Of a DNA stretch of 64,000 bases, positions 58,784-60,974 are shown piece by piece (position 1 is the first letter of the stretch; the number at the start of each line of letters is the position of its first letter). The translations under genes and the position numbers were made by a program. Location: the UHGV virus genome UHGV-0371537; one strand, given 5' to 3'. The stretch is from a virus. The notes under the pieces are model-generated. The model saw only the letters and a program-made list of their open reading frames with translations, was not told where the DNA came from and ran no database searches.

Positions 58784-60974
58784 TGTAGAATACGCCCCGC
58801 TCAAGACGGGGTTTAAGACAGAAGACGTCAGACTGCGTATGGACCAAACGTTCATGCGCAAGCCGTCTGTGCGTGCTCCTCGCGTGGAGTTGATGCTAAC
58901 AGATGAGCAGGAATCGGAGTTCGTCGAGTGCGCGATGGATGCCCATTACTTCGCCGCCAACTACTACAAGATCACGACCATCGATAAAGGCTTCATCCTC
59001 TTTGACATGCACGATTACCAGAAGCAGTTGTTCCATGACTTCCAGGACTATCGATTCAATGCGGTCGTCCAGGCTCGTCAGTCTGGGAAATGTGTAAAAG
59101 GTGACACGCTTGTCACAGTTTACGATACTCTCAGCCAAGAAGAGTTCAGCATCACCGTCGAGGAGCTTCACAGCCGCTTCGAGGGACCGAATCATGCTGA
59201 GCCACTGAATGCCTTTGGTAAACACGATAAGTTCGTAGACAGCCGCTTCGGCAAGCGTTATTTTGTTCGCTGTGATAAGGGCTGGGTTCCGGTTATTGCA
59301 GCACACAAGACAAAACAGTATCAGGAATATGTGGTAATCACGACCACAGGTCGACGCATTCACGTCGCTGATGACCACATGTTCTTCAACAGCCACATGA
59401 AGGAAGTATTCGCCAAAGACCTGGAAGCCGGGTCTCTGCTCCAGACTGAAAATGGTTTGGAAGAAGTTGCAGAAGTGTGGCAGACAGGTGAAATGCACCA
59501 TATGTTCGACCTGCAAGTCAAGTCGAGCGATCAACGATATTACACAGGCGGTTTCCTCAGCCACAACACGACCGTCGTGGCAGCGTTCCTGCTCTGGTAT
59601 GCGATGTTCCACTCCGACAAAGAGATCGCAGTACTGGCGAACAAAGAGAAGCAGGCCATTGAAATCCTTGACCGTATCCGCAAGGCTTATCAGGATCTGC
59701 CATTCTTCCTACAACAAGGTTGTGAGAAGTTCGGTTCTACTCTGATCGAGTTCGAAAACGGTTCTAAGATCTATGCATACGCAACATCATCGGACTCCAT
59801 CCGTGGTCGTTCAGTATCACTCCTGTATGTCGACGAAGTAGCGTTCATTGAAAACGACTTTGAGTTCTGGGAGTCTACATTCCCTGCGATTGCATCTGCA
59901 GAGACTTCCCGTTGTATCCTGACCAGTACACCAAAAGGCCAGCGCGGGTTGTTCTACGATATCGTCACCAAGGCGAATCCAGACCACCCACAGTACAACG
60001 ACTTCAAACTCACGGAGGTGCCTTGGTATCGTGTGCCAACATACACCAAGGATCCAAACTGGGAATCCAAACAGAGGGCGAAGCTGGGGGATGCACGTTT
60101 CGATCAGGAATTCGGTATCAAGTTCCGTGGTTCCGTTGGTTCATTGATCCCGGCCAAGTGTCTGGACAAAATGACCTCGAAGCTCTATCTGGAGCCGAAC
60201 GAGTTCACCAAGATCTACCACGAATACGATCCGAAGCGTATCTACATGGGCATCGCAGATACAGGCAAGGGTGTGGAGGGGGATTACTCTGTTCTGACGA
60301 TATTGGACATCACAGACTACCCTCACAAGATTGCGGCCAAGTATCGAAACAACACGATACCGCCAATGATGTATGCATACACTATCGCCGATATGGGCGA
60401 GAAGTATGGCACATGTCCAATGCTGGTAGAAACCAACAACGACGTGGGTGGTCAGGTAATCACAATTCTATATCAGGAAATTGAATACCCAGAAATCATC
60501 TTCACCACAACAGATGCGAAGGGTACTGGTAAACGAATTGGCGGTCGTCGACCTGAACCTGGTATCAACACCAACAAGAAGGTTCGATCAAACGGTTGTG
60601 CTAACCTCAAGGCGCTTATTGAACGTGAAATGTTGGTTATTGATGACCAAGATACAATTGACGAACTCAGTACATTCGTATGGACTGGGACAAGGTATGA
60701 AGCCGATGATGGTTGTCATGACGACTGTGTAATGCCTCTTGTGCTCTATGCATGGGCGGTGAAACAAGAATGGTTTAGTGATCTCACCAACTCCAGCATC
60801 TCGGTTGATATGAGGGGGCGGTTGTCTGCGATGGAAGAATCTCAGATGATGCCTTTCGGCGGGGTTCTTTCAGCTCCCGACCCACACTCTGTCGAGAGCA
60901 TACCGGGCTTTGGTGGAGTCCAGGTTTATGACGAACGTTCCGGTATGACCATGGAAGAATGGCTGAGACGGTGA
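58764..60974 (+). CDS. gp17: terminase large subunit (T4 gp17-like), interrupted in-frame by a mini-intein
   Basis: Exteins RQSGK and TTVVAAFLLWYAMF reconstitute the gp17 Walker A region (T4: SRQLGKTTVVAIFLAH); downstream LLYVDEVAFI (Walker B-like) and ILTSTPKG ATPase motifs and a nuclease domain; start set to the ATG preceded by GAAGGTGAAG. Confidence 0.88.
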   Translation: MAYQKRDVEYAPLKTGFKTEDVRLRMDQTFMRKPSVRAPRVELMLTDEQESEFVECAMDAHYFAANYYKITTIDKGFILFDMHDYQKQLFHDFQDYRFNAVVQARQSGKCVKGDTLVTVYDTLSQEEFSITVEELHSRFEGPNHAEPLNAFGKHDKFVDSRFGKRYFVRCDKGWVPVIAAHKTKQYQEYVVITTTGRRIHVADDHMFFNSHMKEVFAKDLEAGSLLQTENGLEEVAEVWQTGEMHHMFDLQVKSSDQRYYTGGFLSHNTTVVAAFLLWYAMFHSDKEIAVLANKEKQAIEILDRIRKAYQDLPFFLQQGCEKFGSTLIEFENGSKIYAYATSSDSIRGRSVSLLYVDEVAFIENDFEFWESTFPAIASAETSRCILTSTPKGQRGLFYDIVTKANPDHPQYNDFKLTEVPWYRVPTYTKDPNWESKQRAKLGDARFDQEFGIKFRGSVGSLIPAKCLDKMTSKLYLEPNEFTKIYHEYDPKRIYMGIADTGKGVEGDYSVLTILDITDYPHKIAAKYRNNTIPPMMYAYTIADMGEKYGTCPMLVETNNDVGGQVITILYQEIEYPEIIFTTTDAKGTGKRIGGRRPEPGINTNKKVRSNGCANLKALIEREMLVIDDQDTIDELSTFVWTGTRYEADDGCHDDCVMPLVLYAWAVKQEWFSDLTNSSISVDMRGRLSAMEESQMMPFGGVLSAPDPHSVESIPGFGGVQVYDERSGMTMEEWLRR
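59091..59567 (+). other. mini-intein (about 159 aa, Hint domain without endonuclease domain) inserted in the terminase P-loop
   Basis: Begins with Cys (CVKGDTLVTV, block A-like), ends ...GGFLSHN followed by extein Thr; internal block-B-like (RRIHVADDH) and block-F-like (HMFDLQV) segments. Confidence 0.7.

Follow-up and report, generated by a model that had tools for sequence, protein, structure and literature searches.

The 64,000 nucleotide (nt) stretch of virus genome UHGV-0371537, in the following called the window, carries a gene for the large terminase subunit (TerL) that is interrupted in its Walker A motif by an insert of 159 amino acids (aa). The insert is very probably a selfish class-1 mini-intein that was inherited within the Ackermannviridae, occupies a P-loop site and most likely splices in a fast and constitutive manner. 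The window itself belongs to a phage of the Ackermannviridae, with Agtrevirus and Limestonevirus-type phages as relatives. At the nucleotide level it is ~88% identical to Agtrevirus-type phages, with at most 63% of a 20-kb stretch covered; an identical record was not found. The TerL mini-intein of this phage family is already known, having been reported in 2013, and the window adds one slightly divergent member.

Pfam searches with the TerL precursor returned Terminase_6N (PF03237; E = 4.6e-17, 62.8 bits at a cut-off of 22) and Terminase_6C (PF17289; E = 3e-6, 27.8 bits at a cut-off of 22.6). Among solved structures T4 gp17 (PDB 3ezk, E = 1.1e-64) is the closest relative. Judged from these matches the host protein is a T4 gp17-type large terminase, which combines a Walker A ATPase with a C-terminal RNase-H-like nuclease.

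The boundaries of the insert were read from the codons. The aaa codon of the Walker A Lys (59088-90) is followed by tgt for Cys1 (59091-93), and at the 3' junction cac-aac for His-Asn (59562-67) precedes acg for Thr+1 (59568-70). The insert thereby comprises 477 nt, i.e. 159 codons in frame. The original prediction, which was made from the sequence alone, had placed a Cys directly after RQSGK and His-Asn directly before TTVVAAF, exactly as the codons read. Deleting the insert in silico yielded ...VVQARQSGK-TTVVAAFLLWYAM..., in which RQSGK/TTVVAAF is restored (here and below a slash marks a splice junction). In HMMER alignments residues 28-110 of the query correspond to gp17 85-167 (...SRQLGKT) and residues 268-676 to gp17 166-564 (KTTVVAIF...). 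Since the two gp17 stretches abut, gp17 is unbroken where the TerL of the window has ~159 extra residues. These alignments place the insert within the GK/T of Walker A, directly after the invariant Lys and before the Thr. That its removal rebuilds a continuous P-loop, as had been proposed, is borne out in agreement by the joined sequence, the gp17 alignment and the intein-free homologue P0015 described below. By calculation the precursor has a mass of 84.4 kDa, the joined exteins one of 66.1 kDa and the free insert one of 18.3 kDa, for which ~17 kDa had been predicted. Compared to T4 gp17 (610 aa) the precursor is longer by 126-140 aa depending on the start codon, such that the predicted excess of ~140 aa is the upper end of this range.

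Homologues were gathered from a database of 5.8 billion proteins with the full precursor as query, and 120 of them were listed. From the homologous TerLs 29 distinct inteins were excised by means of their junction motifs. Alignment of 23 of these with the intein of the window provided a set of 24 sequences with identities down to 31%. In all 24 inteins C1, A93, D94, H96, D140, S157, H158 and N159 are invariant, among them the catalytic block-B His (His96). Block B of most inteins carries a Thr in a TxxH motif; in the present family this position is an invariant Ala (ADxH variant). A survey of the junctions showed that the +1 extein residue is Thr in the orthologous 150-183-aa inteins at the GK/T site, while P0066, a large distant intein at the same site, has Ser+1. 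Two other intein types were considered and rejected. Class 3 inteins lack the position-1 nucleophile and possess a WCT triplet with a block-F Cys as nucleophile; here Cys1 is invariant and a conserved block-F Cys is absent (MFDLQV). A naturally split intein was rejected for the window, where the gene is a single uninterrupted open reading frame (ORF).

At the family level the similarity to inteins is pronounced. Intein_splicing (PF14890) is matched by 23 of the 24 members at E < 0.01 (best E = 1.9e-9), and precomputed PF14890 matches are on record for several orthologues. A phmmer search of the PDB with the single window sequence gave only a marginal result (E = 0.03). The profile built from the 24 sequences retrieved exclusively inteins when run against all PDB sequences. 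VidaL (1.1e-12), gp41-1 (5.2e-12) and the consensus atypical TerL split intein CatC (2.9e-8) were the top matches, followed by the CDC21, NrdJ-1, DnaX, PolB16 and GyrA inteins. Through this profile the C-terminal blocks of the window intein align to VidaL and gp41-1.

A fold prediction is in line with these results. An AlphaFold2 model calculated from the alignment of the 24 inteins (mean predicted local distance difference test score, pLDDT, of 95.6; predicted template-modelling score, pTM, of 0.87) is a single compact domain built largely from beta strands, in which residues 23-43 hold two short helices. Comparing the model with the PDB using Foldseek, the ~40 top-ranked chains were inteins with template-modelling (TM) scores of 0.6-0.83, as were all matches with E <= 1e-7. 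VidaL was the best match (E = 2.6e-12), and HINT domains of the bacterial-intein-like (BIL) and Hedgehog types ranked below the intein chains. Neither the Pfam search nor the single-domain model revealed an endonuclease domain in the 159-aa insert. This agrees with the predicted presence of Hint-domain blocks without room for a homing endonuclease: all Pfam matches are of intein type and the model holds one compact domain. By its residues, profile and modelled fold the insert is thus a class-1 mini-intein without a homing endonuclease.

The element is widespread among related phages. By tblastn the intein was detected in 307 records from phages of Salmonella, Klebsiella, Escherichia, Dickeya, Serratia, Shigella, Enterobacter and Yersinia, and coverage reached >=80% in 282 of these. 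A search with the joined N-terminal exteins yielded 283 records of >=80% identity, and all sampled records match in two pieces spanning 1368 nt (891 + 477). The 159-aa element is present in essentially all of the ~280 sequenced enterobacterial Ackermannviridae. The intein closest to that of the window is found in Yersinia phage CAU_YEP3 (95.6%), and the Vibrio Ackermannviridae Kuja and VAP7 carry an orthologue of 173-179 aa at the same site with ~30% identity. An insert of Klebsiella phage TTM-TASP117 (PV588649) that appeared 203 nt larger was rejected as a run of N in the assembly. In this record (L021) the run, at ~1780-1820, lies inside the TerL intein and splits the gene into two 'hypothetical proteins'. 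The G+C contents of intein (0.493) and exteins (0.497) are alike, such that base composition was rejected as a sign of recent transfer.

Between relatives the amino acid identity is 69-95% for the intein vs 84-99% for the exteins. Pairwise ratios of nonsynonymous to synonymous substitution rates (dN/dS) are 0.036-0.13 for the intein vs 0.007-0.075 for the exteins, with dS being saturated for the remoter pairs. The dN of the intein is 3-13 times that of the host protein. As judged from these rates the intein is under strong purifying selection, though it evolves faster than the host protein.

The 120 listed TerL homologues were also surveyed for occupied vs empty GK/T sites. The original prediction had expected terminases without the insert among the gp17 homologues, and these exist from 85% identity outward. 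P0015-P0019 (575-581 aa, 72-85% identical) have an empty site that reads RQSGK/TTVVAAFLLWYA. Empty sites also occur in P0028-48 and others, and many remoter TerLs have them too, among these the 580-aa TerL of Vibrio phage K367 g2. The in-silico spliced TerL of the window aligns to P0015 with 489/574 identities (85%) and 0 gaps through the P-loop. The gene order around P0015, gp15-gp16-TerL-gp18, is that of the window, and the DNA flanking its empty site is identical to the joined flanks of the window at 73/90 positions. In a neighbour-joining tree of the exteins P0015 groups with the subclade of the window in 200/200 bootstraps, with the intein carriers P0012, P0013 and P0014 left outside, and P0016 and P0018 fall within the clade bounded by P0014 (186/200 and 162/200). 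These are distance trees only, and P0015 stems from a 4.8-kb assembled contig. Because P0015 is nested in an intein-bearing clade, very close relatives have a packaging motor that functions in the absence of the intein. Such patchy presence is the behaviour of mobile inteins. Read most economically, the intein was acquired once long ago and has since, on occasion, been lost precisely or replaced by an intein-free allele. At least one nested lineage with an empty site speaks for events of this kind, be it a precise deletion or recombination with an allele that lacks the intein, and it speaks against a regulatory role that is essential.

The conserved residues, read in the light of the established mechanism of class-1 inteins, lead us to infer the following four-step scheme. 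TerL would be translated as an 84-kDa precursor with an interrupted Walker A loop. Cys1 would first undergo an N-S acyl shift with the help of the block-B His96. In the following trans-esterification Thr+1 would react with the thioester, giving a branched ester. Cyclisation of Asn159, helped by His158 and the block-F Asp140, would then release the 18.3-kDa intein. Finally an O-N shift would establish the native Lys-Thr peptide bond, such that the P-loop is restored and the active 66-kDa TerL is obtained. Since an 18-kDa domain cuts the phosphate-binding loop, the precursor should be inactive. As ~280 isolated lytic phages carry the element, they must obtain a functional terminase from the interrupted gene, with splicing efficient enough for growth. 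The homing endonuclease would have been lost or never been present. The element would persist, kept splicing-competent by selection, because only a perfectly precise deletion leaves a working ATPase.

Some observations weigh against this picture. The insert of the window taken alone remains below the cut-offs of both intein models, with E = 1.8e-5 and 25.1 bits (cut-off 35.8) for PF14890 and E = 5.6e-4 and 20.9 bits (cut-off 24.5) for TIGR01445 intein_Nterm. The Hint-domain profile search proposed with the original prediction matched 23 of the 24 family members at E < 0.01, with the scores of the window sequence itself below the curated cut-offs. In addition, the usual Thr of block B is replaced by an Ala, and as a nucleophile Thr+1 is weaker than a Cys or Ser would be, which makes constitutive splicing an assumption. 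Literature searches found neither a splicing assay nor a junction peptide for TerL inteins of the Ackermannviridae. We assign a class-1 intein from the family-level evidence, which is decisive. Splicing is most likely fast and constitutive.

A different role of the intein was put forward in the original prediction, which regarded splicing as a potential checkpoint for DNA packaging. In the extended form of this idea the intein would be kept because its splicing depends on a signal, be it the redox state, the temperature, metal ions, DNA or a factor of host or phage, and in this way times the activation of the packaging ATPase. Such conditional splicing appears quite unlikely. The intein does reside in the active site, such that the precursor should be inactive, it occurs in essentially all sequenced enterobacterial Ackermannviridae and it is under purifying selection; the latter, however, is equally expected of a selfish element whose splicing failure is lethal. 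Disulfide-type switches are known from other inteins. In the present family Cys1 is the sole invariant cysteine, while Cys61 of the window is mostly Ser or Thr in relatives and Cys in few. As no second cysteine is conserved, a redox switch would have to operate without a conserved thiol partner, and a disulfide between Cys1 and Cys+1 is ruled out because the +1 residue is Thr. Inspection of the 24-intein alignment for a conserved sensor feature of conditional splicing, such as a second Cys, revealed none. Moreover, the intein-free P0015 is nested among intein carriers with the full bootstrap support of 200/200, and P0016-P0019 are intein-free as well. The general idea has been put forward for P-loop and TerL inteins (PMC5050341), while our literature searches found no experimental support for it. 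Overall the checkpoint extension is unsupported and somewhat weakened by the data.

In a related scenario, which we consider quite unlikely, the intein would have been co-opted such that splicing is rate-limited, or triggered by a cue of late infection or by assembly with TerS or the portal, and thereby delays activation of the packaging ATPase-nuclease. If true, this would explain the strong purifying selection on an intein devoid of a homing endonuclease across a whole phage family.

It is very unlikely that the insert is instead an integral, non-splicing HINT-like domain of the bacterial-intein-like or pretoxin-HINT (PT-HINT) type that is retained in the mature terminase. A weak PT-HINT match in Pfam (E = 0.027) and the label 'pretoxin HINT domain protein' in some GenBank records would fit such a domain. 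The insert, however, possesses the complete set of splicing residues including Thr+1, and it interrupts the GK/T of Walker A, which is continuous in the T4 gp17 structures. Intein-free orthologues exist, and true inteins match best by both sequence and fold, with BIL and Hedgehog domains far lower. The label itself touches several records, since the orthologous TerL is named 'pretoxin HINT domain protein' in the Dickeya phage records KM209228, KM209320, KJ716335 and KM209271. This name is misleading because it derives from the weak PT-HINT similarity of the intein. Finally, the possibility that the intein has decayed and become inactive in a terminase gene that is itself dead, or that the insert arose through an error of sequencing or assembly, for which nothing specific speaks apart from the N run inside the intein of the TTM-TASP117 record, is effectively refuted by a frame that is open over 736 codons, the same architecture in ~280 independently sequenced viable phages, dN/dS well below 1 and the lack of a second terL in the window.

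The selfish, splicing mini-intein therefore remains the preferred reading. Its parts and the neighbouring genes are summarized in Table 1.

Table 1. Positions of the terL gene, its intein and flanking features in the window.
Feature	Position	Strand	Remarks
TerL (T4 gp17-type large terminase) precursor gene	58764..60974	+	736 aa plus stop
N-extein, 109 aa, ending ...VVQARQSGK	58764..59090	+	Walker A, first half up to and with the invariant Lys
Putative class-1 mini-intein, 159 aa, 18.3 kDa, Cys1...His158-Asn159, single HINT domain	59091..59567	+	
Intein block A, CVKGDTLVTV	59091..59120	+	Cys1 as N-terminal nucleophile, invariant in 24/24
Intein block B, RIHVADDHMFF	59355..59387	+	Ala93-Asp94-x-His96 invariant
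Intein blocks F and G, MFDLQVKSSDQRYYTGGFLSHN	59502..59567	+	Asp140, Ser157, His158 and Asn159 invariant
C-extein, 468 aa, from Thr+1 (TTVVAAFLLWYAM...)	59568..60971	+	rest of Walker A and ATPase, RNase-H-like nuclease domain
Small terminase (gp16-like) gene terS	58079..58783	+	20-nt overlap with terL start
T4-like morphogenesis block: gp15-like, gp16-like small terminase, gp17-like large terminase, gp18-like sheath	window ORFs		

The terL stop codon is located at 60972-60974. The first possible start is an in-frame ATG at 58722 inside terS, which would give an ORF of 750 aa (58722..60974, + strand). The MAYQK start of TerL homologues with 736 aa corresponds to the ATG at 58764 of the window, upstream of which a purine-rich gaaggaagaaggtgaaga is found. 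Homologue starts and purine-rich stretch together point to 58764 as the probable start. Within the window no second terL was detected, and a search of all six frames with the hidden Markov model of the family found no further HINT domain. A free-standing homing-endonuclease gene beside terL is absent from the window, while LIMEstone1 has F-LimIX there. In several close relatives, namely LIMEstone1 (F-LimIX), CAU_YEP3, SKML-39 and pSal-SNUABM-02, terS and terL are separated by a free-standing homing-endonuclease gene of the GIY-YIG/NUMOD3 type, whereas in the window terS overlaps terL directly. Such endonucleases might mobilise the neighbouring intein, which has none of its own, in the sense of collaborative homing.

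Among the homologues several terminases with a divided intein were seen. The T4-like Delftia phage PhiW-14 and a metagenomic contig (L026) contain a homologous intein at the same point (...RQxGK/CV..., ...SHN/TT...), which is broken after ~31-46 residues into two ORFs, whereas the copy of the window is one continuous ORF. For PhiW-14 and L026 the two-ORF inteins would imply trans-splicing. In PhiW-14 (L002, NC_013697) an ORF at 1953-2420, comprising the N-extein and ~46 intein residues, ends with ...ARQMGK/CVQGDTEIKL...DGRG and a stop. A second ORF at 2469-4226, which is the sole TerL annotated in GenBank, starts with MDKPSRKF..., holds ...YYTNGVASHN/TTTVAAF and continues with the C-extein. 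PhiW-14 thus probably has an intein that is split by nature and shares the P-loop site, or the two ORFs are possibly due to a frameshift error. The L026 contig (ENA ERZ27272722 k141_1207163) has ORFs at 1405-1758, 1824-3008 and 3001-4752. Its upstream ORF of 117 aa ends with ...SRQAGK/CVEKSTMVTVRNKKTGQIVEMSIEDFHKLAK and a stop, leaving a 31-aa N-terminal intein fragment (IntN), and a 394-aa ORF without Pfam match lies between the halves. About 28 of the 120 listed TerL homologues open with an intein C-part of ~113 residues (...SHN/TT...) and miss the N-extein. They include P0044, P0046, P0051, P0053, P0067-68, P0072-75 and P0077-85 as well as P0087-88, P0090, P0092, P0105-106 and others. 'Fractured' TerL genes with an atypically split Thr+1 intein appear to be widespread in metagenomic T4-like phages.

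Other TerLs have further or displaced inteins. In Campylobacter phage CP21 (L019, HE815464; 1461-2693 and downstream) a related intein with Ser+1 is inserted three positions earlier within the P-loop (PRQ/C...SHN/SSKST). The same TerL contains at least one more intein start (FSC/CLENTRV...) and an intein end before Walker B (...NHN/CNIIVVDE), and the terminase is broken into several ORFs. P0052, P0056 and P0059 (Vibrio phage VP-1 TerL, 734-741 aa) have a P-loop intein of 169-181 aa, with a precomputed GIY-YIG (PF01541) match in the same polypeptide. P0121 (882 aa) holds at the GK/ site an Ala-first insert of ~330 aa (RQAGK/ALSLDTEI...THN/TTT), which may be a non-class-1 intein. A second intein before Walker B (...HN/C(A/N/I)LL...DE..., where the bracketed letters are alternatives) was seen in P0049, P0070 and P0083, and P0071 starts with an intein C-part at the Walker B site with Cys+1.

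For annotation these results would mean that the mature terminase has 577 aa (66 kDa) rather than 736-750 aa. Many GenBank records of the family are labelled "terminase", "hypothetical protein" or "pretoxin HINT domain protein", and precursor and intein features are due in them. Inteins are known to prefer the P-loops of essential ATPases, and the element is a further case. Modest new points are its spread over ~280 phages, the dN of 3-13 times the host value yet low dN/dS, and the nested lineage with an empty site. Being small, contiguous and of the Cys1/Thr+1 type, this intein of mesophilic enteric phages could find minor use in protein engineering.

The nearest known systems are the TerL inteins of other Ackermannviridae. 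For the Salmonella phages Maynard and Marshall (KF669654, KF669653) the announcements of 2013 described a TerL that, unlike that of T4, is interrupted by an intein, and reported Hint and splice-site signatures within it (PMC3868846, PMC3853055). The announcement of Klebsiella phage Magnus (2019) likewise described an intein-interrupted large terminase (PMC6763660), and in a paper from 2024 the gene appears under the name "terminase large subunit precursor". The Maynard/Marshall intein is orthologous to that of the window, with 159 aa and the same insertion point, and the database entry P0001 ('intein [Salmonella phage Maynard/Marshall]', 159 aa) is 73% identical to it over 100% of the length. 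The inteins of Maynard, Marshall and Magnus differ from that of the window, whose phage is Aglimvirinae-like, by sequence divergence only.

More distant counterparts are found in mycobacteriophages, in which TerL is the most frequent intein host, and the Lys/Thr of Walker A has been named the "classic" P-loop intein site (Kelley et al. 2016, PMC5050341). Efficient splicing was shown for five of the TerL inteins of mycobacteriophages. The only P-loop intein among the five, TerL1-b, is located one residue from the Lys/Thr site; TerL1-a, the intein at the Lys/Thr site itself, was outside the five assayed (PMC5050341). Splicing was discussed there as being needed for TerL function and as possibly regulatory (PMC5050341). 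TerL1-a shares with the intein of the window the Walker A Lys/Thr site in a large terminase, where splicing builds the active site. Its host belongs to the terminase_1 family, while that of the window is of the terminase_6/T4 gp17 type. Active homing endonucleases were shown for TerL1-b and TerL1-c (not for TerL1-a), whereas the 159-aa mini-intein of the window has none.

Among the solved inteins VidaL (6vgv), gp41-1 (6qaz) and Cat (6dsl) resemble the intein of the window as compact HINT domains from genes of T4-like phages. VidaL is the best fold match (TM 0.75-0.82), although the solved mini and split inteins are only 15-22% identical in structural alignments. AceL-TerL, GOS-TerL and Cat-TerL are well-used tools of protein engineering. 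A comparison of the 32-residue N-terminal fragment with the PDB, seeking a link to the IntN of AceL-TerL or Cat-TerL, returned nothing. These three inteins are naturally or artificially split and followed by Cys+1, and judged by the latter they probably sit at another TerL site, while the intein of the window is contiguous and followed by Thr+1.

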